From a bacterium (GTDB lineage Bacteria > Patescibacteriota > Minisyncoccia > Phycocordibacterales > UBA2100): a stretch of 64,000 nucleotides of DNA. Position 1 is the first letter of the stretch. Every line of letters begins with the position of its first letter. A model generated the notes under the pieces. The model saw nothing but the letters and a program-made list of their open reading frames with translations. It did no database searches and was not told the origin of the DNA. The translations under genes were made by a program, and so were the position numbers. The DNA is taken from the NCBI GenBank assembly GCA_038128225.1, contig JAYPJF010000002.1, positions 191,751-255,750 of the forward strand, written 5' to 3'. Positions 5,033 through 64,000 of this stretch are shown one piece after another.

Positions 5033-5094
5033 ACCTCAAATAAACACGTCTTCCGCACAAAACACAAGCATACGTAGCTCGCGAGCCTGGATTT

Positions 5095-44933: not shown

Positions 44934-45040
44934 GTAAAAACTATACCATGCAAAATTGCAATGCGAGACTAAAAAAGGTACAGTTTGCTCGTGCCTGCGG
45001 GCACTGTTGTTTTAAGGACTGGCTCCGGCCAGCAATATAT

Positions 45041-45113
45041 TCCGCGGTAGCTCAGTCGGTAGAGCGGCTCGCTGTTAACGAGTTGGTCGTAGGTTCGAAT
45101 CCTACCCGCGGAG
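45041..45113 (+). tRNA. tRNA-Asn (anticodon GTT); CCA is encoded at 45114-45116
   Basis: TCCGCGG/CCGCGGA acceptor, anticodon loop CTGTTAA and T-loop GGTTCGAATCC. Confidence 0.85.
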
Positions 45114-46814
45114 CCAGTTAGGAATAGAGGCGGCGAAAGCTGCCTCTTTCCTTTTGGTGTAGCCCTTCTTTTCAGGTTCGAGCGTAGCAAGTAGCTGTTT
45201 CTGGTCCCGAAGCTCGTTTTCAATGAGCAAATACGGGTGCAGCCTTTCAATGCTTAGTTTTTTGTCCTTAAGGGTTAGGTTCGAGCCGATGGTTGAAAAT
45301 ATCTCCCGTTTCTTCTGTAACGGAGCGTCTTCGTTGAAATGTCTTTTCGCAAAGGCACAGAAATTGAACGTACGTTCAGCAACGGCGAGGTCATGGTCAA
45401 ACTTCTCTCTAGTACCACCCATTTCTTTTTCAATGCGCGTTCGCTCCGTGACTAAAGCTTTTTTCTCTTGAGCAAATTCATCGGGGGTATACAGCTCGTG
45501 GTGAGAATTCTGTGGTGAGGTAAATATCTTGCTCAAATTAGCAAGCCTTGTTTGGCAGTCATCATATGCCGCCTGAAGAGACACGCGCACCGTCTTCTCT
45601 TCTTTAGTAGAGGTCTTCTGCTTTTCCTGAAGGTAATCGAGGGCTAAGGTTAGGTAATCCTCATCAATGGTAATTTTCTCAAGCTCCTTGTTGAATTGTG
45701 ATTCTAGGTCTTCTACACGCACATGCTTTTGCGTGCAGTCCCGATTCTTTTTCTTGGTGCAGTGATAGTAAACATATTTCAAAATGACAGGATTCTGCAT
45801 TTCGGAAACGTCAGTCAAACATTTCGGGCAATCAGTCCTGTTTTGACTTGAAAACTTGAATTTGCAGTTTGAGCAAATAATCTGATTTTTCTCTTCAGCC
45901 GTGATGGTCGAATCACATTCACCGCAGCGCATTAGACCTGTGAAAGCGAACTCGTGGAGCTGCATTCGAGGCTTACCTTTCTTGCCTAAAAGAAGCTGCG
46001 CACGCTGATACTCCTTTTCAGTAATCATTGGAGGATGATTACCTTTTATCATTTTCTCTTCGCCAGTTTCAGGGTCTGTCCAAGGAAAATAGCCGTAATA
46101 AAAAGGGTCTTTTAGGATGTTGTACATGTGGCTCATCGTAGGAGGATTGCCACCAATCTTCCTGTGCTTGAGGGTTCTCAAGCCCCACTCGTTTATTGCA
46201 ATGTCACGAATCTTGGAAACAGGATAGCTTCCCGTAAGAAAGAGGTCCCATATTTTTCTCACCAACTCAAAACGTTCTGGGTCCGCAGCAATAGTTTTGC
46301 TGCCTTTTTCAGTGCCAACGTTGATATATCCAATCGGACCACCTGAAGGTCGCCAACCGCGTTGAGCTTTACTGTTCAAACCACGTTTAACAACTCTCGA
46401 AAGTCGCATGACGTAATCTGTCGCACGACCACTCTCTATACTCATCAGAAGCCCCGCGTCCTGCGGATAATACGAGCGTGTAGGAGTTTTTATAACTTTA
46501 ATAACCTCATTCTGCAGCATCCACTGGAGCCTGCCGCTATCAATGGGATTTCGAGAAAGACGGTCTACGTCCCAGCAAATTAGCGCGTTTGCCTCTTCGC
46601 GCTCGATACGCTCAAGCATTTGATTAAAGACACTTCGACCAGGGGCTTTCGCACTGCGCTCTTCAGTAAAAGGTTTTGCGACCAACACCAAACTCTCTCG
46701 CTCGCACTGCTTTTTGAGCGCTCCGATTTGGTCGTCTATGGATGCAATCTGGCGTTGAGAATCCTCGGAACTTTTACGACAGTATGCAAAGAATTTAAGA
46801 GTTTCCGTTTTCAT
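45102..46814 (-). CDS. Large serine recombinase (resolvase/invertase N-terminal domain, recombinase domain, zinc ribbon)
   Basis: YCRKSSEDSQRQ catalytic Ser motif. About 570 aa with a C-terminal Cys-rich zinc ribbon and coiled coil. Confidence 0.85.
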   Translation of the reverse strand: MKTETLKFFAYCRKSSEDSQRQIASIDDQIGALKKQCERESLVLVAKPFTEERSAKAPGRSVFNQMLERIEREEANALICWDVDRLSRNPIDSGRLQWMLQNEVIKVIKTPTRSYYPQDAGLLMSIESGRATDYVMRLSRVVKRGLNSKAQRGWRPSGGPIGYINVGTEKGSKTIAADPERFELVRKIWDLFLTGSYPVSKIRDIAINEWGLRTLKHRKIGGNPPTMSHMYNILKDPFYYGYFPWTDPETGEEKMIKGNHPPMITEKEYQRAQLLLGKKGKPRMQLHEFAFTGLMRCGECDSTITAEEKNQIICSNCKFKFSSQNRTDCPKCLTDVSEMQNPVILKYVYYHCTKKKNRDCTQKHVRVEDLESQFNKELEKITIDEDYLTLALDYLQEKQKTSTKEEKTVRVSLQAAYDDCQTRLANLSKIFTSPQNSHHELYTPDEFAQEKKALVTERTRIEKEMGGTREKFDHDLAVAERTFNFCAFAKRHFNEDAPLQKKREIFSTIGSNLTLKDKKLSIERLHPYLLIENELRDQKQLLATLEPEKKGYTKRKEAAFAASIPNWLRG

Positions 46815-46815
46815 A

Positions 46816-47067
46816 TCACCTCAAAAGAGAACGAATTTTTCCTGTAAGCTGCTGTAACTTAGTCTCAAGCTGAACAACATATTCCAAAAAAGAATCGTCC
46901 CGAAAGTACACACCGAAACATTTGGAGCATGCGTATTTTTCAGTACCCCAAATCCTCTTAAGTTTACAGGAAAGACAAGGTTTTTTCATGGCAATTTTGC
47001 TTGCTTTGTAATATGTGCTGCCAAGCTGCCAACCTGATTCCTTAAGGAAAGAAAAACAACTTGGCAA
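46816..47067 (-). CDS. Small zinc-finger protein (CxxC...CxxC)
   Basis: 83-aa ORF with two CxxC pairs, directly upstream of the recombinase. Confidence 0.35.
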   Translation of the reverse strand: MPSCFSFLKESGWQLGSTYYKASKIAMKKPCLSCKLKRIWGTEKYACSKCFGVYFRDDSFLEYVVQLETKLQQLTGKIRSLLR

Positions 47068-47082
47068 TTTGGCAATGGATTA

Positions 47083-48225
47083 TTAAATATCATCAAAAAT
47101 CGAATTTTCTTCTGTGGGAGATACTATCCCTGCAAGGGCTTCCTCCTCTTTAGGCAAGAAGTAGGAATTCTGCTTACCAACCTTTACGGAATTAATTTTG
47201 CCTAAAAGAACTAGCTCTCGAAGCGCCTGGCGAACATTCTTTTGACCCGCATCTTTTTTAGTGATTTCAAGTAGCTCGTTAGTTGTTCGCATCTCGCCTG
47301 AAGAGAGAACATCCAATATCAGGGATTTGGCGGTCTCTTTCTTGTTTGCATCTTCTTCAATTTCACCTAGGTAGTCGAACTTAAAGACAGTACGACCGTC
47401 CTCCACGCCATCGGTAATCTTCACCGCAAAAGGCTTTATTTCGCTCCCTAGGCGATTTTTACGCTGATAGAAGTGTGTCTCCCCAGACACTTCATCTTTC
47501 CTGAGCATGAGGAGTGTTTCTACACTCGCTACCTTGTCTTGAGAACCAAAAAGCTGCTCTTTTTTTGGTATTTTTCCTTCAAACTGCTGATTCTTGCGTA
47601 GGTGTTCTGTGAATATGACCGACACGCCAGAATTTTTCAGAATCTGGAACTTCTGGAAGAAATGCCGTACTTCTTCTGCCTTTTCTTCGCGCATCCCGCC
47701 TGTGGCAGGACGGAAGGTATCAATGATGAGAACATCAATTTTGTTCTTAAGGATATAGTTCAGAAGCCAACGGTATTTCTTATCTTCTTCGCCCGTACCG
47801 TTCAAATTAAAATCATCCTCATTGAGGATAAAAAGGTTTTCATTTGAAGGGTCAAATTTCATCATTCGACCTCGCCTCTGCATTTCGCTCACTGCCATTT
47901 CCAGATTTACATACAGAACTCTGCATTTTTCAGTTTTGAATCGTGTATCCCCAAACCAGGGTGTACCTGTTGTAAGGCACTCCGACAGATGCATTATGGC
48001 TATAGACTTTCCTTCACCAGAAACAGAAGCCACGATTGATACGCCTTCTTTTGGGAAAAGGTCTTTAACTAGCCATCGGTCATCTGGGAAAGAAAGCTTA
48101 TCTATGTCCGCCCAAAGCACAGGTTCAGGCTGTTTGCGTTCCTCGCGCACAAAATCCCATTCGCGCGGTGCGCCACCTAGACTTTCGATATGCTCTTCAA
48201 GCTTTTGCCATTTTTCTTCCTGCAT
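47083..48225 (-). CDS. RecA-like P-loop ATPase of the RepA/AAA_25 type with C-terminal winged-helix
   Basis: Walker A SGEGKS and Walker B DVLIIDT. Domain order typical of plasmid/ICE RepA-like helicase loaders. Confidence 0.55.
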   Translation of the reverse strand: MQEEKWQKLEEHIESLGGAPREWDFVREERKQPEPVLWADIDKLSFPDDRWLVKDLFPKEGVSIVASVSGEGKSIAIMHLSECLTTGTPWFGDTRFKTEKCRVLYVNLEMAVSEMQRRGRMMKFDPSNENLFILNEDDFNLNGTGEEDKKYRWLLNYILKNKIDVLIIDTFRPATGGMREEKAEEVRHFFQKFQILKNSGVSVIFTEHLRKNQQFEGKIPKKEQLFGSQDKVASVETLLMLRKDEVSGETHFYQRKNRLGSEIKPFAVKITDGVEDGRTVFKFDYLGEIEEDANKKETAKSLILDVLSSGEMRTTNELLEITKKDAGQKNVRQALRELVLLGKINSVKVGKQNSYFLPKEEEALAGIVSPTEENSIFDDI

Positions 48226-48406
48226 ACACTTTCGGCAGAATTACCTCGTCTGCCTTAAGGTGGCTCGTAATTGAACCGACCAGACAAACTAATTTTTCAA
48301 AATACTCAAGAGCCATCTCGTCAGAGATGGTTGTACGGTTTTTTATTTCGTAGAGCGCCTTAAACCTCTTGATGTATTTTTCTTTTTCGACCATGTGATG
48401 CGGCAT
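48197..48406 (-). CDS. Hypothetical small protein
   Basis: ORF only; overlaps the ATPase gene start. Confidence 0.25.
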   Translation of the reverse strand: MPHHMVEKEKYIKRFKALYEIKNRTTISDEMALEYFEKLVCLVGSITSHLKADEVILPKVYAGRKMAKA

Positions 48407-48867
48407 CTGCCGTATCTTGAAAATAGCAATCCGTTATATAAAAGAGAATCCCAATTCTAGGATTCTTTTTTAAAAAATAATGTAGGAAAAAAATAATTAG
48501 TATCAACTCAATATGTCTTAAATATTGGGTCAGTACTAAAACACCTCAACTTAATATCTGGTCAGTATTTTCTTAGTACTAAGCACTTATGCACAGATTT
48601 TCCATGTTCCAAAATACTTTCTTCCTTAAGGCAAGAGTGATTGCTATTTGGGACGAAAATCAGGCATAATGGAAAGACAACTGAATATTGGCTCGCAAGA
48701 GCAGCGACCTAAACCGTCTGAAAAGGCGGCATGGTCGAGGAATCGCGTTCAACATAAAAAACCCGTTATTAGGGCGTTGAACGCGTTATGGAGGGAAACT
48801 TCCATAGAGGTCTTCGGACCTTCCTAGTAGCGGGCTTTTTGTTTGGTTGCTTATCAAAGAAACCAAA

Positions 48868-49119
48868 TATATGTCATTTCTTTTACATGCGTTGCAGGCA
48901 CTAGGTCTGTATCTTCTTTACGGCAAAATCTCTGCCCTTTTATGGTGGGGATTGCTTGCCCTTTTCGTGGCTTTCTATTTTGCAGGAAAAACCTACTACA
49001 ACGTATCGGATTCAGACGACCAAAAGGTAAAAGCTTTTTGGTATCAGATTCGGTCTCTCGTATTTATTACTGATATCGTTTCAGTGTTAGCTCTATATGG
49101 CTATTTCTTCCTACGATAA
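48868..49119 (+). CDS. Hypothetical small membrane protein
   Basis: Three hydrophobic helices. Lies immediately upstream of the 804-aa gene. Confidence 0.3.
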   Translation, partial: YMSFLLHALQALGLYLLYGKISALLWWGLLALFVAFYFAGKTYYNVSDSDDQKVKAFWYQIRSLVFITDIVSVLALYGYFFLR

Positions 49120-49173
49120 TGGATTTTTACTGTATGCCCCAAAAGTCTTCATTTTTGCTAAAATTAATACCTA

Positions 49174-51588
49174 ATGAAAGGCACCGCAAACGTAAAACTT
49201 AGACCTCTGAAATTTGCCTTTTTGGTGAATCCAAATGATTCTAAAAGTCTTGCGCGTGCTTTGGAACTCAACGCTTCTTTATGGGGTGGCAGTTACAACC
49301 CGATAATTCCAACTTTCAATCGTATTCCAGCAGTTTGGCGTAAACGTGGAGATGTTTTTGGACACACAGGTAAAACCATCCTCAAGGGGTATATTGATGC
49401 CTTTAACCCAGACTTTCTGGTTCCACTGGGTGACTGTAAAAAAATGAAGCTTGATGATTTTGGTCGTGATGTAGTTGATGATAAAAATCTTGAGGTAAAC
49501 ACCGCAGACGGAACACCAAATTACGGTGTGGGCATTTTTGAAGTGCTGAAAGGCTTTTTCGATAAAGAACTGAAATTCAAAAGACGATATCCAATAAATT
49601 TTATTTTTCCTATTCTTCCTAAAAAGAATAGGCTTTTTTATCAGAGCATCTTTGGATTACCTTCTAAAGAAATACAAGATGTTCTTGTTGAACATTGGCG
49701 AGAACCGCTTGGCGCTACAGATAAAGAGATAGGCTTTGAGAACTATCTTACTGAAATGCTCGCTTATTATCCAAGAAAGCTGATGCGGTTTGAGATTGAA
49801 GCTTCAAATCGTTCGGGTTGGCAGAAAGGTGAATGCATATTTTTAATGGACGCAAGCAATAATCACGACATTATTGATTATTGGAACCTAAGAGCTAATG
49901 GCTGGTCGGTGCTGCCCGTTGCCATTCAAGGCATGCATCTTGATGCGGTAAAAAACGAGGCTCAAAAATTCATCGAGGAGACTTCGGGTGTTAGTAGGCA
50001 CAATACTCAAATTTATTATCACGCCAATTTGATGAAGGCGCGAAGTGTAGATGAGAAGCATGTAAAAGATTTTGCCGCCTCGCTTTCTCCTAAGCCTGAC
50101 GAAAAGGCACGAGGTTCACGATTCTCAATTCAAGCTTGGTATCCGCGAATGTGGGATGAGTGGGCACGCCATAAAGATGGAGTTGGATTTTGTGAAGTCG
50201 AGAGCAAGTCTAAAAGCTATGACTTTAATGATGAGTCTGATGAGGTTTCGGTAAAAACAGTAGACCCTAAATTTGCTTTTAGGTTCGGAGGACACAACAG
50301 TTATTTTAGGTTTGCGAATGACGTTGCGACTAATAACTACAGTTACGATGACCTATATGCTGATGTGATACCTGAAGGTGGAGAACATCTCACCCGCGCA
50401 CTTAGCTCAATTCATTTTGATGAATGGCGTTTTTCCAAAAGAGGAGCCACTTACATGTCCAAATTTAAAGGTTGGACCATTCATATAAAAGTTCCGAAAG
50501 CAGAAGATGTTTTTACAGCCTGGATGAAAGACCAAGGTCTAGAAATAAACCTGTCTGCTCCAGGGAAAATAGCCAAGCAGATGATAAAACACCTGGGAGG
50601 CATACACGGTACAAATACCCTCGCTAACGAGCACATGATTGCTCTCCTGAAGAACATGGAGTCGGGCAAAGAAATGAATAAGGACCAGTTTTGGGGTGAA
50701 ATATCCAAAGTGGCTTCAACCAGAACCTTTAGGCAAGATGCATCAGAACTACTGAAACATTACGTTGAGAAAAAAATGTTTCAGCTAGGAGTTACTCTTC
50801 AGTGTCCAACCTGCACGCACAGTTCTTGGTACGACATTAAAGCTCTTAATTATGTCGTTACATGTACGAACTGCTTGGAGGAGTTTAATATCCCCACCCA
50901 TTCGCCTAATGATATTAAATGGGCGTACAAAACAAGCGGACCTTTTGGACTTCCTAAAAGAGCAGAAGGCGTGTATCCCACACTTCTAACTTTGCGCATT
51001 TTCTCTTCTCTTTTTCACCATAGCCCAATAACTCCGATGCTTAGTTTTGAAACTAAAATCAAAAATGTGGCGATGGAAGTTGACCTTGGTTTATTTTTCA
51101 GGAAATCTCAATTTAGAGAGGAGGACGAAACACGAGTTATTTTTGCTGAATGCAAATCTGAAAACAGCTTTGCTAAAAGTGATATAGATAAGATGAAATT
51201 AATCGCCGAAAAGTTCCCTGGTGCTGTATTGGTATTTGCGACTCTTAAGGAAGAGCTAAACTCAAAAGAAGTTGCTCTACTCAAACCACTTGTAAATAAA
51301 TGCCGCCGATATTACAAAAACGAGGAGCCTTATAACCCAGTAATGATTCTCACCAAGACAGAATTGTTTTCTTCTTGGGATTTGAATCAGACCTGGAAAG
51401 AAAAAGGCGGTAAATATGCCCCCTTCGGCGACAGACACTATTACGGCGATGAGTTGCTTAGCGTGTGTGATGCAACGCAGCAACTATATTTAGGCATGAA
51501 GCCTTGGAATGATTTTATACACGAGCAGTTTGAAAAGAGGAGGAAAAAGAAAGCATTAGCAACACCAGGAACGGCGCTAAACCCGTGA
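49174..51588 (+). CDS. Large orphan protein (804 aa) with central CxxC...CxxC zinc ribbon and C-terminal PD-(D/E)xK-like motif
   Basis: CPTCTHSSWYDIKALNYVVTCTNC zinc ribbon. EVDLGLFF...RVIFAECKS fits hhD...ExK. No match to any family I recognise. Confidence 0.45.
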   Translation: MKGTANVKLRPLKFAFLVNPNDSKSLARALELNASLWGGSYNPIIPTFNRIPAVWRKRGDVFGHTGKTILKGYIDAFNPDFLVPLGDCKKMKLDDFGRDVVDDKNLEVNTADGTPNYGVGIFEVLKGFFDKELKFKRRYPINFIFPILPKKNRLFYQSIFGLPSKEIQDVLVEHWREPLGATDKEIGFENYLTEMLAYYPRKLMRFEIEASNRSGWQKGECIFLMDASNNHDIIDYWNLRANGWSVLPVAIQGMHLDAVKNEAQKFIEETSGVSRHNTQIYYHANLMKARSVDEKHVKDFAASLSPKPDEKARGSRFSIQAWYPRMWDEWARHKDGVGFCEVESKSKSYDFNDESDEVSVKTVDPKFAFRFGGHNSYFRFANDVATNNYSYDDLYADVIPEGGEHLTRALSSIHFDEWRFSKRGATYMSKFKGWTIHIKVPKAEDVFTAWMKDQGLEINLSAPGKIAKQMIKHLGGIHGTNTLANEHMIALLKNMESGKEMNKDQFWGEISKVASTRTFRQDASELLKHYVEKKMFQLGVTLQCPTCTHSSWYDIKALNYVVTCTNCLEEFNIPTHSPNDIKWAYKTSGPFGLPKRAEGVYPTLLTLRIFSSLFHHSPITPMLSFETKIKNVAMEVDLGLFFRKSQFREEDETRVIFAECKSENSFAKSDIDKMKLIAEKFPGAVLVFATLKEELNSKEVALLKPLVNKCRRYYKNEEPYNPVMILTKTELFSSWDLNQTWKEKGGKYAPFGDRHYYGDELLSVCDATQQLYLGMKPWNDFIHEQFEKRRKKKALATPGTALNP

Positions 51589-51830
51589 AGACCTCGAACT
51601 TGACACATTTTGACAACCCTCCAGTAGACAAAGTAAAATATGAGGACAGTATGATGACGCGAGAGAAATTTCTGACCCTTAAGGAAGTTGCGAAAATTCT
51701 GCGTGTCAGCGAGAGGTCAATTTTCCGTTATATTCACGGCGGCAAGTTGAAGGCAAGCAAAATTGGGTACTGGCGAATACGCGAAAAGGACCTTGAGGAC
51801 TTTCTCGCAAAGAACCGCGCTTCAAAGTAA
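51585..51830 (+). CDS. Excisionase/MerR-like HTH (HTH_17) DNA-binding protein
   Basis: LTLKEVAKILRVSERSIFRYI helix-turn-helix. GTG start overlaps the upstream stop. An alternative Met start lies near 51651. Confidence 0.55.
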   Translation: MKTSNLTHFDNPPVDKVKYEDSMMTREKFLTLKEVAKILRVSERSIFRYIHGGKLKASKIGYWRIREKDLEDFLAKNRASK

Positions 51831-51834
51831 CAAT

Positions 51835-52767
51835 ATGAAAACGGCAACTGCATCAAAAATGACAATCAACAAGAAACCTGCAAAGAAGGCGGCAAAAAAG
51901 ACGTACAAAATTATTGACCTTTTTGCGGGTATCGGCGGCTTTCACATTGCTTTCCACAATCTCGGCGTAGAAACAGTTTTTGCGAGCGAATGGGACGAGC
52001 ACGCACGTAAAACTTACGAGCACAATTTCAAGAAAATTACGCCTTCTCTTTTTGAGAACGGAAACTTTGCAGGCGACATCACAAAGGTAGATGCGGCTTC
52101 AATCCCTGATTTTGATATTTTGACCGGCGGTTTCCCTTGCCAGCCGTTCAGTCAGGCGGGTTTCAAAAAAGGTTTTTCTGATGTGCGCGGGACACTTTTC
52201 TTTGACATCGTTCGCATCATTGATACAAAACGCCCAGTCGCTTTCTTTATTGAAAATGTACGTCATCTCCTCAACCACGATGACGGCAAAACCTTTGCGA
52301 CAATCAAAAAAGTAATTGAGGAGGACTTGGGGTACTCTTTCCACGCAAAAATAATAAAAGCGTCCGACTTCGGCTTGCCGCAACACCGACCTCGCCTGTA
52401 TATGGTCGGTTTCCGTGACAAAAAAATACCTTTCAATTTCCCTGAACCGATACCGCTTCAAGCGAGTATGTCTGATGTATTCGGAGCACCCGTGAACAAA
52501 AAAGTGGGTTATACCCTCCGACTTGGCGGCCGCGGTTCTGGTCTGCACGACCGCAGAAATTGGGATACTTACCTCGTCAAAGGAAAGGCCCGCAGATTGT
52601 CACCGAAAGAAGGAAAGAAAATGATGGGCATACCAGACGATTTTGAGTTTCCTGTGTCAGAAGCACAGGCAATGAGGCAACTCGGCAACAGTGTCGCTGT
52701 AAATGCGATACAGGCCACTGCCGCGGAAATTATCAACTCACTCAACAACTACTATGGCAAAAGGTAA
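51835..52767 (+). CDS. DNA (cytosine-5)-methyltransferase
   Basis: Motif I DLFAGIGGF, motif IV GFPCQPFS and motif VI ENV. C-terminal QLGNSV. Confidence 0.9.
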   Translation: MKTATASKMTINKKPAKKAAKKTYKIIDLFAGIGGFHIAFHNLGVETVFASEWDEHARKTYEHNFKKITPSLFENGNFAGDITKVDAASIPDFDILTGGFPCQPFSQAGFKKGFSDVRGTLFFDIVRIIDTKRPVAFFIENVRHLLNHDDGKTFATIKKVIEEDLGYSFHAKIIKASDFGLPQHRPRLYMVGFRDKKIPFNFPEPIPLQASMSDVFGAPVNKKVGYTLRLGGRGSGLHDRRNWDTYLVKGKARRLSPKEGKKMMGIPDDFEFPVSEAQAMRQLGNSVAVNAIQATAAEIINSLNNYYGKR

Positions 52768-53833
52768 TAAAGGCGAATGGAGTGAGTTCTATACGTTCCT
52801 GAAACTGCTTGCAGAAAAGCAGTTGAACGGTGCGGACGAAAATCTGCAAAAGATAGAGGATATTTTCTATCCGATTTTGAAAGTAATCCGCGAAGAAGCA
52901 ACGGGCAGAATGGATTACGAACTTGCCGAAAACAACAAAGTGAAGGTTGTGCAAACAGGTACAGAAGTCGCCCTCGTAGATGCTTCGGACCTCAAGTCGA
53001 AAGTGGTCCAGATATTTCAGACAATACGCGACAATCAGGATACTACTTTTGAAATCCCAGAAGCGGACGAACTGATGACTCGGTTCCATTCAAAGAAGTT
53101 GAGCGCTGGTAACTCTCACAAGGAAGACATCACTCTCAAAATTCACGACCGTATTACGGGCGCAATGCCGGAAGTCGGGTTCAGCATCAAATCAATGCTC
53201 GGTGCGGCATCCACACTTCTCAACCCTTCCGCCGCAACCAACTTTATTTACAAAATCTCGGGCCTTGATGAGAGTAAGATAGACGAAATAAACGCAATTG
53301 ATACTCGCTCAAAAGTACGTGACCGTCTTTCAGCAATTGTTGCGGCTGGCGGCAGTTTCTCCTATGCGGGCATCAGTTCAGATACGTTCACAAAAAACTT
53401 GAGGCGGGTGGATACGGTTCTGCCTGAAATAATGGCGCAGCTTCTTCTTGCCTTCTATCTCGGTAAGGGCAACGGGTTGCCAGACCTTATTTCAAATTTG
53501 GGTGACGGAGAAACCAACATTCTCACCTTCACGCTGGACCGCTCCGATTACGAGTTCAAGGTCAAAGGTCTCTTGCACAATGTAGCCCTCGGAATGGTGC
53601 CCGATACCGCTTGGGACGGCCTTATACGCGCTCACGGGGGCTATATCATCGTCAGGGAGGACGGAGAGGTGGTCTGTTACCACGTCTACAACGCAGATGC
53701 TTTCAGGTCTTACCTGTACAAGAACACCCGATTTGATACCCCCAGCACGACCCGCTACGGGTTCGGGAAGGTCTACAAGGAAGGCAACGACCTTTTCATG
53801 AAACTGACCCTGCAAATCAGGTTCATCAGATAA
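52754..53833 (+). CDS. Type II restriction endonuclease (HpaII-family-like) paired with the C5-methyltransferase
   Basis: Overlaps the methyltransferase stop by 14 nt. N-terminus MAKGNKGEWSEFYTFLKLL resembles R.HpaII-family proteins as I recall them. Confidence 0.5.
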   Translation: MAKGNKGEWSEFYTFLKLLAEKQLNGADENLQKIEDIFYPILKVIREEATGRMDYELAENNKVKVVQTGTEVALVDASDLKSKVVQIFQTIRDNQDTTFEIPEADELMTRFHSKKLSAGNSHKEDITLKIHDRITGAMPEVGFSIKSMLGAASTLLNPSAATNFIYKISGLDESKIDEINAIDTRSKVRDRLSAIVAAGGSFSYAGISSDTFTKNLRRVDTVLPEIMAQLLLAFYLGKGNGLPDLISNLGDGETNILTFTLDRSDYEFKVKGLLHNVALGMVPDTAWDGLIRAHGGYIIVREDGEVVCYHVYNADAFRSYLYKNTRFDTPSTTRYGFGKVYKEGNDLFMKLTLQIRFIR

Positions 53834-53837
53834 AAAT

Positions 53838-54251
53838 ATGGCGGACCGCATCTCACAATCACAGCGGTCAAAAAATATGGCCGCAGTCAAAAGCCGCGGC
53901 AATAAAACCACGGAGCAAAAACTTCTCGTTCTTTTGAGAGAAAATAAAATTACAGGTTGGCGCAGGCACTACAAGAAACTTGCCGGCACACCCGACTTTG
54001 CCTTTCCTAAACGGAAGGTGGCGGTCTTCGTTGACGGCTGTTTCTGGCACGGGTGCGAATGCTCAAGTATTCCTAAAACAAACAGAAAGTTTTGGAAAGA
54101 GAAGATAAATGGAAATATCAAAAGAGACAAACTCGTGGTTTCACTGCTACGTAAAAAGGGATGGTTTCCAATCCGCATCAAAGAACATGAATTCAAAAAT
54201 AATAAAATACCCACCAACCTTTTAAACAGACTTGGTGTTAAATACGGATGA
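53838..54251 (+). CDS. vsr: Very short patch repair endonuclease Vsr
   Basis: FVDGCFWHGC motif and about 137 aa. Located downstream of the C5-methyltransferase and endonuclease. Confidence 0.85.
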   Translation: MADRISQSQRSKNMAAVKSRGNKTTEQKLLVLLRENKITGWRRHYKKLAGTPDFAFPKRKVAVFVDGCFWHGCECSSIPKTNRKFWKEKINGNIKRDKLVVSLLRKKGWFPIRIKEHEFKNNKIPTNLLNRLGVKYG

Positions 54252-54291
54252 CTTTTGGATAGGTTGTCCTGTGGCGGTATTTCCTCGGCAC

Positions 54292-54330
54292 GGGGGGCCA
54301 CTTTGGGGGGATACCTAGGGGGTATGGGGG
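54292..54330 (+). repeat. Four consecutive G5-6 tracts (G-quadruplex-forming motif)
   Basis: GGGGGG-N7-GGGGGG-N7-GGGGG-N3-GGGGG read directly. Confidence 0.5.
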
Positions 54331-54758
54331 TATTTTTTAACTTAATACTAAGTCAGTACTACGCAGCTCTGGCACATAAAAATCGTCCGAGTTATCCTGA
54401 ATCCACGTTCGGATTGCCTCAACGGTGTGGAGCTTGGTAACGCTTGGGATTTCTTGTGAATCGTTGTTTGTCGCCTTTAAGTGTCTATACTTAGTGCATG
54501 ACAAACAATGATGTAGAACTTGTAGATGTGGTTGATGAGAAGGGCAATGTTTTGGAAGTAGTGCCTAAACCGGACGCTCATAAGCGGGGGCTTCTTCACA
54601 AGACAGTAATGGAGCATTACGCAACGACTATCTCTGAGGCCGATAACTTCAAATACCGATTATTTCTTTTTAGTTTCGCCCGCTAATATTGACATACTGT
54701 CGTATCTGTGATATCGTTAGTGCGGCTATCGTGTCCTTTAGATATTGGGAGAAAGCAA

Positions 54759-55172
54759 ATGAGCCTCACCATTGAGGACGAAATCTCTGGCAAGCCCGTC
54801 GTCATCGAGCGTCCGCTTCTGGCCGAGCACATCAAGGTCAACCAGGTGCTCTGGTACAACGGCTTCACCAGCGTCGGCAGCTGGGATTGCCCCGCAATCA
54901 TCACGCAGGTGGACGACAAGAAGAAGCGTTTCCGCGTCCGCTCGCTCGACGACATGAGAGAGCAAGACCAATGGTACAAGTTCTCCGTCTCGAAGCATTC
55001 GTCGGGAAGCCGCAAGACGATGCGTGTCGTCGAGCCTACCGAGGTCAAAGCGTACCTCGAGAAGCGCAGGCCGCAGCTCCAGGAGGCCGTCGAGGACGAG
55101 AAAGCGTCCCTTCAGCGGGCAGAAGCCGCTCTGAAGCACTTCGACGACATCCTGGCGACTCTGAACATCTGA
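54759..55172 (+). CDS. Hypothetical protein (GC3-rich, foreign-looking)
   Basis: RBS GGGAGA. Strong G/C third-position bias unlike its neighbours. A UUCG-loop terminator follows. Confidence 0.4.
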   Translation: MSLTIEDEISGKPVVIERPLLAEHIKVNQVLWYNGFTSVGSWDCPAIITQVDDKKKRFRVRSLDDMREQDQWYKFSVSKHSSGSRKTMRVVEPTEVKAYLEKRRPQLQEAVEDEKASLQRAEAALKHFDDILATLNI

Positions 55173-55194
55173 AGTGTCGCTGCACCGCCCTATC

Positions 55195-55230
55195 GAGAGC
55201 CGCCTGGCTTCGGTCGGGCGGTTTTCATTT
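55195..55230 (+). terminator. Rho-independent terminator
   Basis: gccgcctggc-ttcg-gtcgggcgg hairpin followed by TTTTCATTT. Confidence 0.6.
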
Positions 55231-55428
55231 GGCTAAGTCGGGAATGTAAAAGTACCCCGAATGTGTCTGGAAATAGGTTCTGACTTCAGACACAATGTGG
55301 AGCAAACGATTTTTAGTTTTAACAGAGCCGCTTTATTTTTAATCCGTGAAGAGAGTAGTAGAGTCGTAGCCTCGACAATTTTTATAAGTAAAGTATAACG
55401 AATTTGGCAACAGTTGGAGGACGCACCG

Positions 55429-55932
55429 ATGTCAGACAAAGGAATGGTTGAGAACGCTCGCGAGGCGGGCAAGCCAGCGCAACAGCCTGGCGATCGAGAA
55501 CTTTTGCTTCAGGTCGTAATGTTGCAAACAATGCTGAACTCGAAAATGTTTGAGTTTATGCGCGAATATCAGCAGCAAGACAACTGGGGAACCGACCGAG
55601 CCTTATTCCGAGATGGGTCTGGCCGCAAAACAAAGGTAGCTAATTTATTCGATGAGGTGAACCGGGTTGGTTGCTTGTTGAGTGAGGCCGTCTCCGCGTT
55701 TGCAGGAGAACGACTGTACGAAAAGCGAGATGAGAACGGCCGGGTAGTTGCCTTTTGCACAGTATGCGAAAAAGAAACTCCTTTCAGAAGGGAAATCGAC
55801 TCCCCTTACGGAATGCTTGAAGCGTATTTTCGTGATTGCGAACGACTCGTATGCACGATTTGCGATCGCGATACGATCTATCCCGGCGATGAACGGTTGC
55901 CTAGACTCAACTCGATCTTTCGTACCAGGTAG
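55429..55932 (+). CDS. Hypothetical protein with C-terminal zinc ribbon (CTVC...CTIC)
   Basis: GGAGG RBS 8 nt upstream. A terminator follows. Confidence 0.4.
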   Translation: MSDKGMVENAREAGKPAQQPGDRELLLQVVMLQTMLNSKMFEFMREYQQQDNWGTDRALFRDGSGRKTKVANLFDEVNRVGCLLSEAVSAFAGERLYEKRDENGRVVAFCTVCEKETPFRREIDSPYGMLEAYFRDCERLVCTICDRDTIYPGDERLPRLNSIFRTR

Positions 55933-55962
55933 CAACCTCGCGAGTACAGCGAACAAGCGAGA

Positions 55963-55994
55963 CCGCTTGGCATCTGCCAGGCGGTTTTCTTTTT
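55963..55994 (+). terminator. Rho-independent terminator
   Basis: ccgcttggca..tgccaggcgg stem followed by TTTTCTTTTT. Confidence 0.65.
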
Positions 55995-56103
55995 AAACAA
56001 TCGGCATCTGCATCCTTTCTGTCTGTACTGAAAAAGGATCGAGGCCCAGAAACAGATGCGGCCGCCCTTGTGGGCGGCCGCATTATACTTTCCTTGCCGC
56101 GAC

Positions 56104-57975
56104 TTATTCGCCAATGAGTATAAGACGCGGAGCAAGTGTCATATTTGAGGCATCGACCGCTCCTTCTTTTGAGTAATATTCGATGCGACCGTTTTGATTC
56201 TCGTTTGTTTTTCTAATGAGCCACTCCGTGCGCCCATTGAGCACATCCGCGGTCACATCCCACCTAACTTCCCCTGTTTGGTTGTTAGTGTGAGTCACAG
56301 GCGAGGCTGTCGCCGCACCATACGTGCCCCCGTTCCATTGTGGATTACAATTGGCGACTTGATTTTCAATCGCAGTATCGATCGCGCAATTCCAAGTCAC
56401 ACCACTGCCAGTTCCTCGAGTTGCCTGCGCGGGTGGGAGACCTTCACCTTTGCCATTTCCCTCTGCAAATGTGGCAACGAGCGGATGTGCATCAACTGTC
56501 CGGCCAGTTCCCCAGTTGTTTCCATTTTCTGCAATCGTAAGCACAAGCTCTGCGGAGACATTTTCATGCTCTGTGAGAAACGCCGCAACTTCTGAAGCAT
56601 CGAAGCCGACGAGTGCGCGGTTATTGCCATCACTACGCACCATAAGATGCGGATTTGCGCCTTCGTTGCGATTACTCTGCCCAGCGCGCACGAACGCATC
56701 GGCGTTTGTTGTAAGCGTCACGCTTTCAAGCGGATTAAAGATGCGAGCGACAATCTCTCGGGGACTTGTGCCTTGTTGTGACTCCCATGTGGCTACGAAC
56801 ACGCCGTCTTGGAGTTGCGCCACCGGCTGAACAGTTGCACGCTGCGGTCCAGTTGAATACACGTTCATTTGGAAATCTGTGCCGATCTGCTGCCCGTCGA
56901 GATCTAAGAACTGTCCGTACACACCCAAATTACTTCCATCACGCTCATACACGTTCCACGTGAGAAGAATGGTTGAAGGATCATACAAGACCGCGCTGAA
57001 TCGTTCTTTTTGATTCGTCTCATCAGCGGTCACCAGAAATTCCGAGGTAAGCGGTGTGGCATTTTCATCGTAAAGCCGACCATAAACACCATGATCATCC
57101 TGCATGCGCAGGGCGATGAAGTTACCGTTGGGCAACGCGAGAACAAAACTTCGCCCTTCGTCACCACTGGTATTTTGATTCACCTGAAATTGCGTCCCCA
57201 CAAGAGTACCGTCATTTTCCATAAGCTGTCCGTAGACACCACCGGCGCTGCCATCTTCCTGCCACGAATTCCAAACCATTATGATTCTGCCGTTCGTAAG
57301 CTGTGTAATTGTCGGCCCTTCCTTCTGCCCGTTGCCACTCACTAGTATCTCGGTGCCAATCGGCGTGCCGTTTTCCGCATAGATGCGTGCTCGTACATCA
57401 GCCGGACTACCAACAGCTTTGTCGGTCCACGCTGCGATGAAGTTTCCACTCTGAAGAGGCACCACCGTCGAGCCAAATTGGTCATCCTCACTGTTCGTGT
57501 TTACGTGGAATTCTGATCCGACTTTGTTTCCATACTCGTCAAAGAGCTGTGCAAATATGCCGTAATCACTGCTAGTTCCGCCGTACTCTTGACCAATCGA
57601 CTCAGTGAGCACAACAAATCCGCCGTTTGCAAGCGGCGCAACATGCGAAGGAAACTGATCGCCAGAGGTAAATGTATTGATCTGAAATTCAGAACTTATT
57701 GCATTTCCTGCTCGATCGAAAAGTCGCCCATACCCCCCGTAACCGCTACCGTCCTGCCCAAGAGAAGCCCAAATGACGACAAAATCTCCGTTCGCAAGCG
57801 TTGCAACCTTTGGTTCGATTTGGTCGTTGTCGGTAGATGCGTTCACGACAAACTCGGCTCCACCATTTGCCGATTGCGCCTGTGCAATTAATGGAGAGAG
57901 AAACATGACCACCGCGAGTAATGAAAAAACAAAAAACTCTACGCAGAATTTCTGCGCAAAAAGCGAGGTATTCAT
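56104..57975 (-). CDS. Secreted protein with about eight tandem ~55-aa repeats (probable beta-propeller) plus a C-terminal domain
   Basis: Signal peptide and a repeating F.VN..T.GDQ..P.V..L.NG.FVV.W.S...DGS..GVYGQLFD unit. Confidence 0.5.
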   Translation of the reverse strand: MNTSLFAQKFCVEFFVFSLLAVVMFLSPLIAQAQSANGGAEFVVNASTDNDQIEPKVATLANGDFVVIWASLGQDGSGYGGYGRLFDRAGNAISSEFQINTFTSGDQFPSHVAPLANGGFVVLTESIGQEYGGTSSDYGIFAQLFDEYGNKVGSEFHVNTNSEDDQFGSTVVPLQSGNFIAAWTDKAVGSPADVRARIYAENGTPIGTEILVSGNGQKEGPTITQLTNGRIIMVWNSWQEDGSAGGVYGQLMENDGTLVGTQFQVNQNTSGDEGRSFVLALPNGNFIALRMQDDHGVYGRLYDENATPLTSEFLVTADETNQKERFSAVLYDPSTILLTWNVYERDGSNLGVYGQFLDLDGQQIGTDFQMNVYSTGPQRATVQPVAQLQDGVFVATWESQQGTSPREIVARIFNPLESVTLTTNADAFVRAGQSNRNEGANPHLMVRSDGNNRALVGFDASEVAAFLTEHENVSAELVLTIAENGNNWGTGRTVDAHPLVATFAEGNGKGEGLPPAQATRGTGSGVTWNCAIDTAIENQVANCNPQWNGGTYGAATASPVTHTNNQTGEVRWDVTADVLNGRTEWLIRKTNENQNGRIEYYSKEGAVDASNMTLAPRLILIGE

Positions 57976-58158
57976 AAAAATGTGTGCAAACTTATTAAAG
58001 GCGTACCAAACCCTAATAAAGCTGTCTTCAGTGTAGCATGAATTTTGCTGTGTTTTGAAACATAGCGGACAAAGTGGTTGTTGATTCCGGGCATTGTTTT
58101 TTCCTTAATAATATGTAGACTTTGCGCGGACCATAAGGTTCATAGGTAAACGAGAGGA

Positions 58159-58899
58159 TTGAAAATGAAGGAAGGGGTCCCAGCGTTTGCGTGGAGTAAC
58201 TACGCAGAACTTGGTCGCAACTTGTACCCTGGCAGAGGTATCGTGGTAGGCCGCGATGAAACCGGAAAATATTTAATCCAAGTGTATTGGGTTACAGGGC
58301 GAAGCGAAAAAAGCAGAAATCGCATTTTCGACGCGGACTACGATGCGGGGCGTCTTTTCACTGAAGCAGCGGACGCCGCGAAGATGATGGACCCGAGCCT
58401 CGTCATCTACAACGCGATGCGCGAACGGGGGTCTTTTTATATCGTTGGCAATGGAGACCAGACCGACACCGTTGCGGATTCTCCGCACTTACCACACCTG
58501 AACACTGCGCTACAAGGACGCATATACGAGCCGGACTCACCCAACTTTACACAGCGCATTACTGCGGTGTGCGTTCTGCAGGCACGCCCATGCGTTCAAA
58601 TGTCCATCCTGCGGAAATCGGTGATCGGGGAAACGTGCGACCGAATGTTCTATGAGTTCGTACTGAAACCGGGTTGCGGTTATTGCATTATGACCTATGC
58701 GGGTGACGGTGATCCCCTGCCTCCGTTCCGTGCAGAGCCTCTTCTGATGCCGCTTTGCGGCAGTATGATAGATATTGCGAACGCGTACTGGAATGCGCTT
58801 AACGAAAGCAATCGTGTGTCGCTTGCGGTGAAGTTTGTGAAAATCCGCAGCGGGCGATCAACTATTCACATCATCAACAAGTACGAAAAAGTCGGGTAG
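58159..58899 (+). CDS. purO: IMP cyclohydrolase PurO-like (archaeal type)
   Basis: YPGRGIVVGRDETGKYLIQVYWVTGRSEKSRNR...VIYNAMRERGSFYIVGNGDQTDTVADS resembles the PurO family N-terminal pattern as I recall it. Confidence 0.5.
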   Translation: MKMKEGVPAFAWSNYAELGRNLYPGRGIVVGRDETGKYLIQVYWVTGRSEKSRNRIFDADYDAGRLFTEAADAAKMMDPSLVIYNAMRERGSFYIVGNGDQTDTVADSPHLPHLNTALQGRIYEPDSPNFTQRITAVCVLQARPCVQMSILRKSVIGETCDRMFYEFVLKPGCGYCIMTYAGDGDPLPPFRAEPLLMPLCGSMIDIANAYWNALNESNRVSLAVKFVKIRSGRSTIHIINKYEKVG

Positions 58900-59052
58900 A
58901 AGTCTCTGGCACATTGGAAGCCGCAGCGCGCACTGCGGCTTTTTGCTATATTATGTAAGTATCAGTTGGCGTTTTGTGGGTTCATGTGTGCTGCGCGTCC
59001 TTTCGTACTGTACTCTTTGAGAAACTCAAACTATGCTACCATTGCGGACACA

Positions 59053-59646
59053 ATGAAAAACGAAATCGAAGCGACCTTTGTCAACATCGACCACGAGTTT
59101 ATGCGCCAAAAGTTACGAGAATTTGGAGCTCAACTCGTGCGTCCGGAGCGTCTTAACCGGCGCACGATTTTTGACTACGAAGATTTGCGTCTCGATAAGA
59201 AAGCTGCATGGATACGCCTCCGAGACGAAGGTGACTCTGTTACGCTCACCTTTAAGCAAAGAAATGGTGAGACTATTGACGGCATGAAAGAAATAGAGGT
59301 GGTAGTAAGCGACTACGAGAAAACGAAAGCCTTGTTGCTTGCGACAGGCCTATCGGTAAAAGCCGAACAAGAAACTAAGCGCGAACTTTGGGAACATGAG
59401 GGTGTCCAAATCATGCTCGACACCTGGCCATGGCTCAACCCCATCATTGAGATCGAAGGGCAAAGTGAGGAGCATGTGAAAGCATTTTCCGAGCGCCTTG
59501 GTTTCAATTGGAGCGAGGCTGTTTTTGATAGTGCCGATAAACTATATCAACTTGTTTTCGATGTAAGTCGGACAGAAATATCTACCTGCCCAATACTATT
59601 TGGCCCCGTCCCCGTGTGGTTGGAGAAAAAGCGTCGCATCGGGTAA
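59053..59646 (+). CDS. CYTH-like (triphosphate tunnel metalloenzyme / class IV adenylyl cyclase-like) domain protein
   Basis: N-terminal NEIEATF beta-strand with paired Glu and roughly 190 aa. Match is weak. Confidence 0.4.
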   Translation: MKNEIEATFVNIDHEFMRQKLREFGAQLVRPERLNRRTIFDYEDLRLDKKAAWIRLRDEGDSVTLTFKQRNGETIDGMKEIEVVVSDYEKTKALLLATGLSVKAEQETKRELWEHEGVQIMLDTWPWLNPIIEIEGQSEEHVKAFSERLGFNWSEAVFDSADKLYQLVFDVSRTEISTCPILFGPVPVWLEKKRRIG

Positions 59647-59714
59647 GCGAATGTTTTAGCAGTGTACCCGCGCATGTGCTGACGTTTCCGCTGAAAAACG
59701 GTACAATACTGCCA

Positions 59715-60194
59715 ATGCGCACAAAAAATATAATCGAGGCCGCAGTCGCCATTATAGTGTGCGAAGCTGCTGGGATTGCGGGATCGTTCTTTACAGCCCC
59801 CTCCATTCCCACGTGGTACGCCGACCTTATCAAAGGACCGCTCAATCCGCCTTCTTGGATTTTTGCACCCGTATGGACCACGCTCTATGCTCTTATGGGT
59901 ATTGCCGCATACCTTGTATGGAAACAAGGCATGCATCGCCGCGACGTGCAGATCGCTCTCGTTCTTTTCGGCGTGCAACTTGTCCTCAACATGCTCTGGT
60001 CTTACATCTTTTTCGGACTTCGCGCACCAGGACTTGCCTGTGTTGAAGTTGTTTTGTTGTGGATTACAATTGCTGCCACACTGTGGGCGTTTGCGAAAAT
60101 TTCCAAACCCGCTGCGTGGCTCCTCGTACCGTACATCGCATGGGTCAGCTTTGCCGCTTACCTCAACTATACGCTCTGGATACTTAATTCGTGA
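59715..60194 (+). CDS. tspO: TspO/MBR family tryptophan-rich sensory protein
   Basis: TWYADLIKGPLNPPSWIFAPVWTTLYALMGIAAYLVW and five TM helices. Confidence 0.85.
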   Translation: MRTKNIIEAAVAIIVCEAAGIAGSFFTAPSIPTWYADLIKGPLNPPSWIFAPVWTTLYALMGIAAYLVWKQGMHRRDVQIALVLFGVQLVLNMLWSYIFFGLRAPGLACVEVVLLWITIAATLWAFAKISKPAAWLLVPYIAWVSFAAYLNYTLWILNS

Positions 60195-60219
60195 TCGGCC
60201 ACTATTCTAAGTGTCATTT

Positions 60220-60846
60220 CTACGTTCTCGGATCACTTCTCAGCCATTCCCGCGCATCAGTTGTTGTCCGCTCGAATGCGCTTGCAGGTCTGAGAATGCG
60301 TCGATTGACTTTCGGCACCAAGGCGTAGTGCTTCTGCTCATCGAGGGCGTGTGCGATGTAGTGAAGGTTCTTTTCATCAGTGACCCACCCAGAGCCGAAC
60401 TTGCGAAGATCGAGTGGGCGTGAGTAGCTCACAAGCGTCTTAACCCCATTGTTACTCATGTAGTACTCGTGAAAATACGAGAGTGCGAGCTCACGTATAT
60501 TTTTGTAGATCGGATCACGATAGCGAAGTACCGCATGGTTCGTTTTGCTCAGTGCACCCCAGTATCCGCCCACACGAAACAAGGCAACCACGTGATCATC
60601 GTCATACGACTTCGAGGTAAGATCCATGAGAAGCGGCCGTGTGCCATGGATCCACAGCGCGCATGCGGCAAGGAGCGCACCTTCAAGACAGTGCGCCTTG
60701 CCTGTCTTTAACACACGCCTCGGCGACATGTACGTTTGGCCTTTTTTCTCAAAATTAACGGGTATCGTGTCGAGAAAATCTTGAATTTTTTTCGCGGTCG
60801 TTAACCTTCTAAATAACCGCATTTCTGAATCACTAAGCCCAAACAT
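60220..60846 (-). CDS. Hypothetical protein, possibly transglutaminase-like Cys-protease fold
   Basis: GKAHCLEGALLAACAL then a downstream His and Asp. Weak. Confidence 0.3.
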   Translation of the reverse strand: MFGLSDSEMRLFRRLTTAKKIQDFLDTIPVNFEKKGQTYMSPRRVLKTGKAHCLEGALLAACALWIHGTRPLLMDLTSKSYDDDHVVALFRVGGYWGALSKTNHAVLRYRDPIYKNIRELALSYFHEYYMSNNGVKTLVSYSRPLDLRKFGSGWVTDEKNLHYIAHALDEQKHYALVPKVNRRILRPASAFERTTTDAREWLRSDPRT

Positions 60847-60896
60847 CGTCTCAGTATACGCGAAAGTTCAGCACGCCACTTACACCGCGTTGTTCG

Positions 60897-62778: not shown

Positions 62779-62878
62779 GACGATGCCATTTATCATCTTT
62801 GCTGCCACACACAACTACGCACGCATCCTACACACAAAGAATAGCCGCGCCACAAAATTATGGCGCGGTCTATCCACC

Positions 62879-63535: not shown

Positions 63536-63728
63536 GTGGACTCTCCTCTCAAAGGCCCTCGCCCTGCGCTAAGAGTGTTCGGTATTTATGTCTGTGTCAA
63601 CATCTGTTGGTGCGCGGTAGAGGTATCCCCACTGTAAACACGACACATATCTCTCAAATAAAAACGTGCTTGCACAGTCCGCGCATACGTGTATTGTGCA
63701 CGCGGCATCAAGACCGATGGAGGAAGAT

Positions 63729-63908
63729 ATGCATATGCGCTCTTGGGTCGTCCTTGGGTTGGCTATCGTTTGTGTCTGCGTGTATCACTACTACGGACAA
63801 GTGCAGTTTGATCGCACGTGTAACGCTGCGGGTGGAAAGCGAATCTGGGATTGGGGCTTTGGAAACGTGTGTGTGAGGCCCGGCTCACCTTTCTATCCGA
63901 CTGAGTAG
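63729..63908 (+). CDS. Hypothetical small secreted or membrane Cys-containing protein
   Basis: GGAGGAAG RBS, a signal-like hydrophobic segment and four Cys. Confidence 0.35.
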   Translation: MHMRSWVVLGLAIVCVCVYHYYGQVQFDRTCNAAGGKRIWDWGFGNVCVRPGSPFYPTE

Positions 63909-64000
63909 CGCATACCTGCACGAGCCGCCAACAAGGCGGCTCGCTTGTTTTCGTCAAAAAACCTTTTTAGCGCCACTGCTGCGCCACGCCCCACTTTATC

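Follow-up and report, generated by a model that had tools for sequence, protein, structure and literature searches.

A mobile HpaII-family restriction-modification cassette with a Vsr repair gene on a serine-recombinase island of a probable CPR bacterium

Three tightly packed genes in the 64,000-nucleotide stretch of bacterial DNA analysed here (the window) form a functional-looking HpaII-family type II restriction-modification cassette with a dedicated repair gene, a reading to which we give a probability of roughly 85%; CCGG is the likely recognition site. The genes encode a C5-cytosine methyltransferase (M), a restriction endonuclease (R) and a T:G-mismatch endonuclease (Vsr), and they sit on an integrated island (Table 1). 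All three open reading frames are intact and lie on the forward strand, and PADLOC calls their products MTase_II, REase_II and Vsr. Together with matches to PF00145, PF09561 and PF03852/TIGR00632, these calls bear out the first-pass annotation, which had proposed a complete 5-methylcytosine type II module with an associated Vsr. It had also put the overlap between the M stop and the next gene at 14 nt, and the ORF listing and a direct reading of the junctions both give exactly this figure; vsr does follow R, as had been noted, with 4 nt between the R stop and the vsr start. An NCBI assembly has identical M and R proteins with the same start codons, encoded on a 345-kb contig. No Shine-Dalgarno sequence is evident upstream of M, R or Vsr when the junctions are read directly. 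The module is an ordinary and already recognisable kind of bacterial defence system.

Table 1. Features of the cassette and of the island that carries it (positions in the window).
Feature	Position	Strand	Evidence or remarks
tRNA-Asn	45041-45116		beside the island
Integrated island, approximate extent (~10 kb)	45117..55492		low GC, GATC-free, CCGG-poor, GCGC-poor
Large serine recombinase of the island	45102..46814	-	PF00239, PF07508, PF13408; PHROG 95 integrase E=2e-55
AAA_25 (RepA / primase-helicase-like ATPase)	47083..48225	-	PF13481 E=9.5e-32; PHROG primase/helicase matches
Uncharacterised 804-aa predicted PD-(D/E)XK nuclease with 4-Cys ribbon	49174..51588	+	neighbouring cargo gene
Small HTH_17 / excisionase-like DNA-binding protein	51585..51830	+	PF12728 E=9e-16, TIGR01764, PADLOC mad1 E=8e-10
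M, C5-cytosine DNA methyltransferase, 310 aa, short target-recognition domain	51835..52767	+	ATG 51835, TAA 52767
R, HpaII-family type II restriction endonuclease, 359 aa	52754..53833	+	ATG 52754, TAA 53833
Vsr, T:G-mismatch (very-short-patch repair) endonuclease, 137 aa	53838..54251	+	ATG 53838, TGA 54251

The family membership of the three proteins follows from strong full-length matches. M matches PF00145 (E=2.5e-81, 274 bits, cut-off 22) and TIGR00675 (E=2.2e-83, 280.7 bits, cut-off 100.65), and the canonical motifs ascribed to it at first reading are all there and in canonical order: I (FAGIGG, at 30), IV (PCQ, 101), VI (ENV, 140), VIII (QHRPR, 183), IX (RRLSPKE, 253) and X (GNSV, 284). 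The distance between motifs VIII and X is 101 aa, as against 149 aa in M.HpaII-type enzymes, a type defined by a long recognition domain (KYYLS...KGNGFGYEII...GGMGRERN) and by at least about 77% identity among its members. M scores 228 bits as M.HpaII-type, where true members reach 550-820, and its alignment with an M.HpaII-like protein (P0121) gives 39% identity, with a gap of ~48 residues in the recognition domain. Judged by sequence, M is not of the M.HpaII type. Among solved structures its best match is M.HhaI (E=2e-67), a GCGC C5 methyltransferase (PDB 1mht and others), and M is about equally close to M.HhaI (~230 bits) and to M.HpaII. M and M.HhaI are of similar small size (310 and 327 aa) and have in common a TL dipeptide and a YLVxGKxRxLxPxE segment leading into motif IX; the C-terminal part of the M recognition domain is more M.HhaI-like than M.HpaII-like (YLVKGKARRLSPKE vs YLVNGKTRKLHPRE). 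However, ~40 recognition-domain residues of M.HhaI (roughly 196-235) have no counterpart in M, the first recognition loop of HhaI is not recognisable there, and R comes from another family than R.HhaI. M also differs from Dcm, reaching only 169 bits on the Dcm subfamily model (cut-off 710 bits).

R matches PF09561 (RE_HpaII) over profile positions 1-359 of 359 (E=4.8e-112, 375.3 bits, cut-off 25), so that its placement in the R.HpaII family, first suggested from the N-terminus, holds over the full length; the match to PADLOC REase_II profile PDLC03563 has E=1.6e-101. Of the 63 alignment columns conserved at 95% or more in 80 family sequences, it keeps 62. The conserved blocks are an N-terminal GNKGEWSE, K123/D125, GFSIKS and a C-terminal block, and the putative catalytic centre D125...S144-x-K146 is retained. 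Alignment with a prototype-like R, encoded beside an M.HpaII-like gene, is colinear over the full length with 40% identity. Single-sequence and profile searches against all PDB chains returned no relative of R, and its fold was therefore taken from prediction. In the predicted structure, the nearest neighbours of R are the monomeric PD-(D/E)XK endonucleases MspI (CCGG), R.HhaI and HinP1I (both GCGC). Relatives that are 83% identical to R have already been named “HpaII family restriction endonuclease” by NCBI.

Vsr matches PF03852 (E=3.3e-20, 72.2 bits, cut-off 27), and TIGR00632 (106.3 bits, cut-off 97.85, positions 1-119 of 119). In its alignment with E. coli Vsr (structure 1cw0, E=1.6e-17), the PDF, GCFWH and RD motifs line up. 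We take the catalytic Asp/His/Asp and the four zinc ligands of 1cw0 to be those assigned in the Vsr structure papers. PDF and RD retain their Asp and GCFWH is kept, and the last Cys zinc ligand (WEC in 1cw0) is aligned with a His (KEH). Identity to the Vsr of a prototype-like locus is 38%. The genetic linkage of a C5 methyltransferase to a T:G-repair Vsr is shared with E. coli Dcm-Vsr, but there dcm overlaps vsr directly, while here the R gene separates M from vsr; moreover, Dcm is a solitary methyltransferase with the site CCWGG, from which the cassette's probable site differs.

The HpaII system of Haemophilus parainfluenzae consists of M.HpaII, R.HpaII and V.HpaII, and its site is C^CGG. The cassette has the same three gene families, M before R with overlapping genes and an associated Vsr, and an endonuclease of the same Pfam family. 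M stands immediately before R in 74 of the 78 distinct related loci; of the four exceptions, one has M downstream, one is without M in the stretch covered, and two have it further upstream. The proposal that M-R-Vsr is the HpaII arrangement did not survive comparison, however: prototype-like loci (L081-L083), whose M proteins are 93-98% identical to the M.HpaII sequence, run valS-vsr-M-R, with Vsr upstream rather than downstream of R. Our literature search found no text on the gene order of the prototype HpaII locus. A Vsr downstream of R is instead typical of the cassette's branch, in which 14 other loci have it directly behind R on the same strand. The R tree splits into two clean clades, each with its own M type, and the cassette R is not in the clade of the prototype; mean R identity is 41% between the branches and 48% within the cassette's branch (minimum 36%). 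Going by its sequences, the cassette belongs to the branch with a short-recognition-domain M and Vsr downstream, and not to the Haemophilus prototype branch. A further difference is its setting on a serine-recombinase island of a bacterium that is probably a member of the CPR. On 5-methylcytosine restriction-modification in Patescibacteria, the literature search likewise found no text.

If the proteins act as their families do, M would methylate a cytosine at C5 within a short palindrome, CCGG being the likeliest, and R would cut the unmethylated site, for example in incoming phage or plasmid DNA. Where 5-methylcytosine deaminates to thymine, Vsr would nick beside the T:G mismatch and very-short-patch repair would then restore the C, thus limiting the mutational cost of methylation. 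So close a spacing, with M and R overlapping by 14 nt and R and vsr 4 nt apart, suggests a single transcript with coupled translation, in which M would come first.

A large serine recombinase has inserted the island next to tRNA-Asn, and the last 15 nt of the recombinase gene overlap the 3' end of the tRNA. The island contains no GATC, where 31.5 are expected, and 44630-55492 is the longest GATC-free stretch of the window; GCGC, at ~12 per kb in the host, drops to 2-3 per kb within the island. Neither long direct repeats nor a repeated piece of tRNA-Asn turned up to mark the island ends, so the right end is placed on composition only. In DNA, the match to an island in a Paceibacterota MAG is confined to the cassette (51866-54055, 76% identity), and the rest of the two islands differs. 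M, R and Vsr move as a unit, and the cassette travels between different serine-recombinase islands.

Family and island composition together make CCGG the likely recognition site of the cassette, at about two in three. Comparing two islands with the cassette and one without, CCGG is observed 4 times against 24.4 expected in the present island and 3 times against 17.6 in the other cassette-bearing one, whereas in the related, cassette-free island it is not avoided (18 against 10.2); GCGC is avoided in none of the three. The CCGG depletion that the first-pass annotation had proposed to look for genome-wide is found in the island; in the host part of the window there is no clear avoidance (observed/expected 0.89, z=-1.7). 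In the pooled flanks of the prototype branch (47 loci), CCGG is the most avoided palindrome (0.52); in those of the cassette's branch (34 loci) it stands at 0.70, and GGCC, ACGT and GATC are avoided as much. It is possible, though clearly less probable than CCGG, that architecture and mechanism are as described and that the branch recognises something other than plain CCGG, either another four-base site centred on CG, for example GCGC, or a longer one that includes CCGG. R and M do diverge in parallel, forming two clean clades whose M recognition domains differ, the nearness of M to the GCGC enzyme M.HhaI extends to the segment before motif IX, and two GCGC cutters are among the structural neighbours of the R model. 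Against this, the 62 conserved positions kept by R are common to both clades and many are polar, R identity between the clades is hardly below that within the cassette's clade, and it is CCGG, not GCGC, that the two cassette-bearing islands avoid, GCGC itself occurring in the host at about 2.7 times the expected frequency. The presence of two systems of the cassette's branch (L023 and L057) in one MAG (ELA345) speaks for another site, but such co-occurrence says little since the prototype clade has same-branch duplicates too (L045, L039/L080). M types interleaved on the R tree were not seen; with two clean clades there is no M swapping that would prove equal specificity. A stronger version, in which the short-recognition-domain M and downstream Vsr mark a functionally distinct HpaII-like subfamily, common in CPR/Patescibacteria MAGs and with a site or methylated position unlike that of HpaII, is more doubtful still. 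If true, the HpaII endonuclease scaffold, modelled as MspI/HinP1I/HhaI-like, would have acquired a new specificity in step with a methyltransferase whose recognition domain is minimal.

That the host does not clearly avoid CCGG might also suggest that R is inactive or decaying and that the locus is an orphan methyltransferase with Vsr, serving as an epigenetic or repair module and not in defence; solitary C5 methyltransferases paired with Vsr-like proteins do exist (PMC12907096). We consider this very improbable. R is full length and free of frameshifts, matches the whole Pfam profile and keeps 62 of the 63 conserved positions, including the putative catalytic centre; its near relatives (83-89% identical) are just as intact, and recent acquisition of the cassette on an island accounts for the missing avoidance in the host. 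Hardly more probable is a five-gene defence operon, MADS-like or methylation-associated, in which the 804-aa nuclease and the HTH protein would join M, R and Vsr and cooperate with the methyltransferase. All five genes share a strand, and each either overlaps the next or lies 4 nt from it, the HTH gene ending 4 nt ahead of M; the HTH protein matches PADLOC mad1 and, weakly, NCBIfam MADS1, and homologues of the 804-aa protein have GmrSD and a HEPN protein as neighbours and also lie within a type I restriction-modification operon. Yet neither gene adjoins any of the other 79 HpaII-family loci, the sister island included, where DNA homology begins only at M; the sole HTH match (L016) lies >1 kb downstream on the opposite strand. 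The 804-aa family is also found without any C5 methyltransferase, the fold matched by the HTH protein is a generic excisionase type, and a strong promoter-like site (51610-51639, 11/12 consensus positions, the best of the region) separates the body of the 804-aa gene from the HTH and M genes. Because it is absent from the other family loci, the HTH gene is treated as island context and not as a conserved part of the cassette, and a role as its C-protein-like controller was dropped on the same grounds.

The three-gene HpaII-family cassette predicts that its host, probably a member of the CPR, restricts unmodified DNA and has 5-methylcytosine in its genome at a short site, for which CCGG is the likely sequence. 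This is useful for reading methylation calls, for planning cloning and transformation, and for tracing gene flow in these uncultured lineages; beyond its mobility and the methylation prediction, the cassette is routine annotation. The most unusual feature nearby is the 804-aa predicted nuclease, which belongs to a large family found in defence neighbourhoods.

The same-strand ORFs match exactly the three genes that the first-pass annotation had placed within 51835-54251, including the 14-nt overlap between the genes for the C5-methyltransferase (M, 310 aa) and the endonuclease (R, 359 aa), which are followed by the gene for the T:G-mismatch endonuclease Vsr (137 aa). M carries the canonical motifs that had been claimed for it, with I, IV (PCQ), VI (ENV), VIII (QHRPR), IX and X found in order, and it matches the domain models PF00145 (E=2.5e-81) and TIGR00675 (E=2.2e-83). 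The nearest solved methyltransferase is M.HhaI (E=2e-67). The proposed likeness of R to the R.HpaII family is borne out by PF09561 (RE_HpaII, E=4.8e-112), all 359 profile positions being covered. Vsr matches PF03852 (E=3.3e-20) and exceeds the curated cut-off of TIGR00632; against E. coli Vsr (1cw0, E=1.6e-17) the PDF, GCFWH and RD segments align, with His instead of Cys at one zinc ligand position. Together with the PADLOC labels MTase_II, REase_II and Vsr, these Pfam and TIGRFAM matches uphold the reading as a 5mC type II R-M module with Vsr. An NCBI assembly contains identical R and M sequences on a 345-kb contig. Patescibacteria/Paceibacterota MAGs supply the closest relatives of R (83-89% identity), named "HpaII family restriction endonuclease" by NCBI, which makes a CPR bacterium the probable source of the window. 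Right after the vsr stop, 54252-54340 is an unusual stretch rich in G-runs (GGGGGGCCACTTTGGGGGGATACCTAGGGGGTATGGGGGTATTTTTT).

Positions of the cassette genes and the neighbouring tRNA gene in the window
Feature	Position	Strand	Basis
M	ATG 51835 to TAA 52767	+	ORF listing, junctions read directly
R	ATG 52754 (inside M end) to TAA 53833	+	ORF listing, junctions read directly
Vsr	53838-54251, start 4 nt after R	+	ORF listing, junctions read directly
tRNA-Asn	45041-45116		

Judging from their families, M would methylate the C5 of cytosine within the site, R would cleave unmethylated sites on incoming DNA, and Vsr would act where deamination of 5mC has produced T:G mismatches, nicking them 5' of the T, with short-patch repair then restoring C:G. 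Vsr action on T:G mismatches is described in general terms elsewhere (PMC12907096). The gene overlap points to coupled expression in which M is translated first. The module had been correctly recognised and well located, and the system is an ordinary one: an HpaII-family type II R-M system with Vsr, from a distinct but populous branch.

The prototype was approached through the M.HpaII sequence, which matches database proteins (P0121 and P0122) at 97-98% identity; 84%-identical relatives bear the JGI label "modification methylase hpaII". On the contigs carrying M.HpaII-like genes (L081-L083) the order is valS-vsr-M-R, the R gene being of the RE_HpaII family. M-R-Vsr had been taken for the HpaII arrangement, but these prototype-like loci show vsr-M-R. 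Compared with such a locus, the window R is colinear at 40% identity (E=6e-94), Vsr shares 38% identity, and M, which lacks ~48 residues of the M.HpaII recognition domain, shares 39%. The assignment to the HpaII family is correct. M.HpaII-type methyltransferases show remarkably little divergence across a range that takes in Pasteurellaceae, Neisseria and Flavobacteria (77-84% identity), and are often Vsr-methyltransferase fusions of ~560 aa (P0152, P0160, P0162, P0182, P0223 and others; locus L033, 2335-3999).

Scanning one genome per species gave 79 loci. Of the 78 distinct related ones, 74 have M immediately 5' of R. The partner M is either of a short type, with 101-104 aa between motifs VIII and X, to which the window M belongs, or of the M.HpaII type, with 149 aa. 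The R neighbour-joining tree has two clean clades, each with its own M type. In the short-type clade, Vsr follows R directly on the same strand (n=14), lies downstream on the other strand (n=3) or lies upstream (n=1); in the prototype clade, one locus excepted, any nearby Vsr either lies 5' of M or forms the N-terminal part of a fusion with it. By Vsr placement and M type across these loci, the window system is a typical member of the short-type branch. In six loci (L025, L026, L028, L029, L037, L057; M at ~2305-3981 in each), the short-type C5 methyltransferase upstream of the HpaII-family endonuclease is a RadC fusion, a single ORF of 558-561 aa with an N-terminal RadC-like JAB domain, UPF0758_N and a helix-hairpin-helix; this sub-branch has no Vsr nearby. 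One Tenacibaculum gallaicum contig (L045) holds two M-R pairs of the M.HpaII-type branch ~2 kb apart (2-2022 and 4110-6019), and two family members also occur together in one Cellulophaga MAG (L039, L080) and in MAG ELA345 (L023, L057).

To our knowledge, HpaII (C^CGG) is the only biochemically characterised family member; its site is stated in PMC2441816. We put the probability that the window system recognises CCGG at about two in three. In favour of that site, besides the HpaII precedent, the window R keeps 62 of 63 columns, many of them polar, in which conservation over the two clades is 95% or more, and mean R identity between the clades (41%) is close to that within a clade (48%, minimum 36%). 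Also in its favour, CCGG is strongly avoided in the window island (4 observed, 24.4 expected); the sister island L001, a Paceibacterota MAG locus with the same cassette, has 3 against 17.6 expected, and L084, a related Patescibacteria island that lacks the cassette, does not avoid it (18 against 10.2 expected). GCGC is avoided in none of the three. The remaining observations are contrary to CCGG or neutral. The M recognition domain is unlike that of M.HpaII, its last segment resembling M.HhaI, and M types are never exchanged between the two R clades. CCGG in host DNA outside the island stands at an observed/expected ratio of 0.89 and is not depleted, and avoidance in the pooled flanks of family loci is not decisive.

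R has no sequence relative among PDB entries by sequence search. Its AlphaFold2 model, built with 20 family members, is of high confidence (pLDDT 92, pTM 0.88), and Foldseek places HinP1I at the top with a match that is not significant. D125 and S144-I-K146 are invariant and lie on adjacent predicted strands; they would fit a D...(N/Q/S)-x-K centre of the kind in MspI and HinP1I. In 2008 no fold had yet been assigned to the family (PMC2441816); its placement in the PD-(D/E)XK superfamily dates from 2012 (PMC3424549).

The cassette lies on an integrated element. A large serine recombinase gene (570 aa) overlaps the tRNA-Asn 3' end, followed by an AAA_25 ATPase gene, an 804-aa gene, a small HTH_17 gene and M-R-Vsr. 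A search for att repeats came up empty, in keeping with a serine recombinase, and the right end of the island is placed at ~55.5 kb on composition. GC is 0.42 in the backbone, 0.465 in the cassette and ~0.50 in the host, and GCGC falls from ~12 per kb in the host to 2-3 in the island. DNA similarity to L001 is limited to 51866-54055 (76% identity), and the two islands have no more than remotely related recombinases and differ in their remaining cargo; the three genes are therefore a mobile cassette. The HTH_17 gene, whose product matches PADLOC mad1, and the 804-aa gene are co-oriented with M and closely joined to it; they were considered as cassette parts and are treated as separate cargo, since neither adjoins any other HpaII-family locus in the survey. 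The 804-aa protein, a predicted nuclease, has no match in four domain libraries. Its family counts 2212 representatives, mostly full length and all annotated hypothetical, with D637, E659-C-K661 and four Cys invariant; its homologues occur within a type I R-M operon, next to GmrSD and a HEPN protein, and on a further serine-recombinase island.

The longest GATC-free stretch in the window is 44630-55492; where 31.5 GATC would be expected the island has 0, and GATC, CCGG and GGCC are all absent from its backbone (45117-51834). Two other Patescibacteria serine-recombinase islands (L001 5001-12300, L084 1-9000) are also GATC-free, and their host flanks are not. Together this suggests strong, general selection against GATC on such mobile elements. 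In the host (1-45116 and 55493-64000), GCGC on the left side, at ~12 per kb, is 2.7x the base-composition expectation, and CGCG is 2.2x. Downstream of vsr, 54750-55250 has a GC of 0.59, with ORFs (54708-55172, 55414-55932) without family matches. Two copies of an 18-nt motif (AATATTGGGTCAGTACTA and variants, 78-83% identity) lie where the AAA_25-side genes and the 804-aa gene diverge, in the intergenic region (48521-48538, 48553-48570), and a third lies just downstream of vsr (54344-54361); the motif may serve as a binding site for a regulator or a recombinase, or may be chance.
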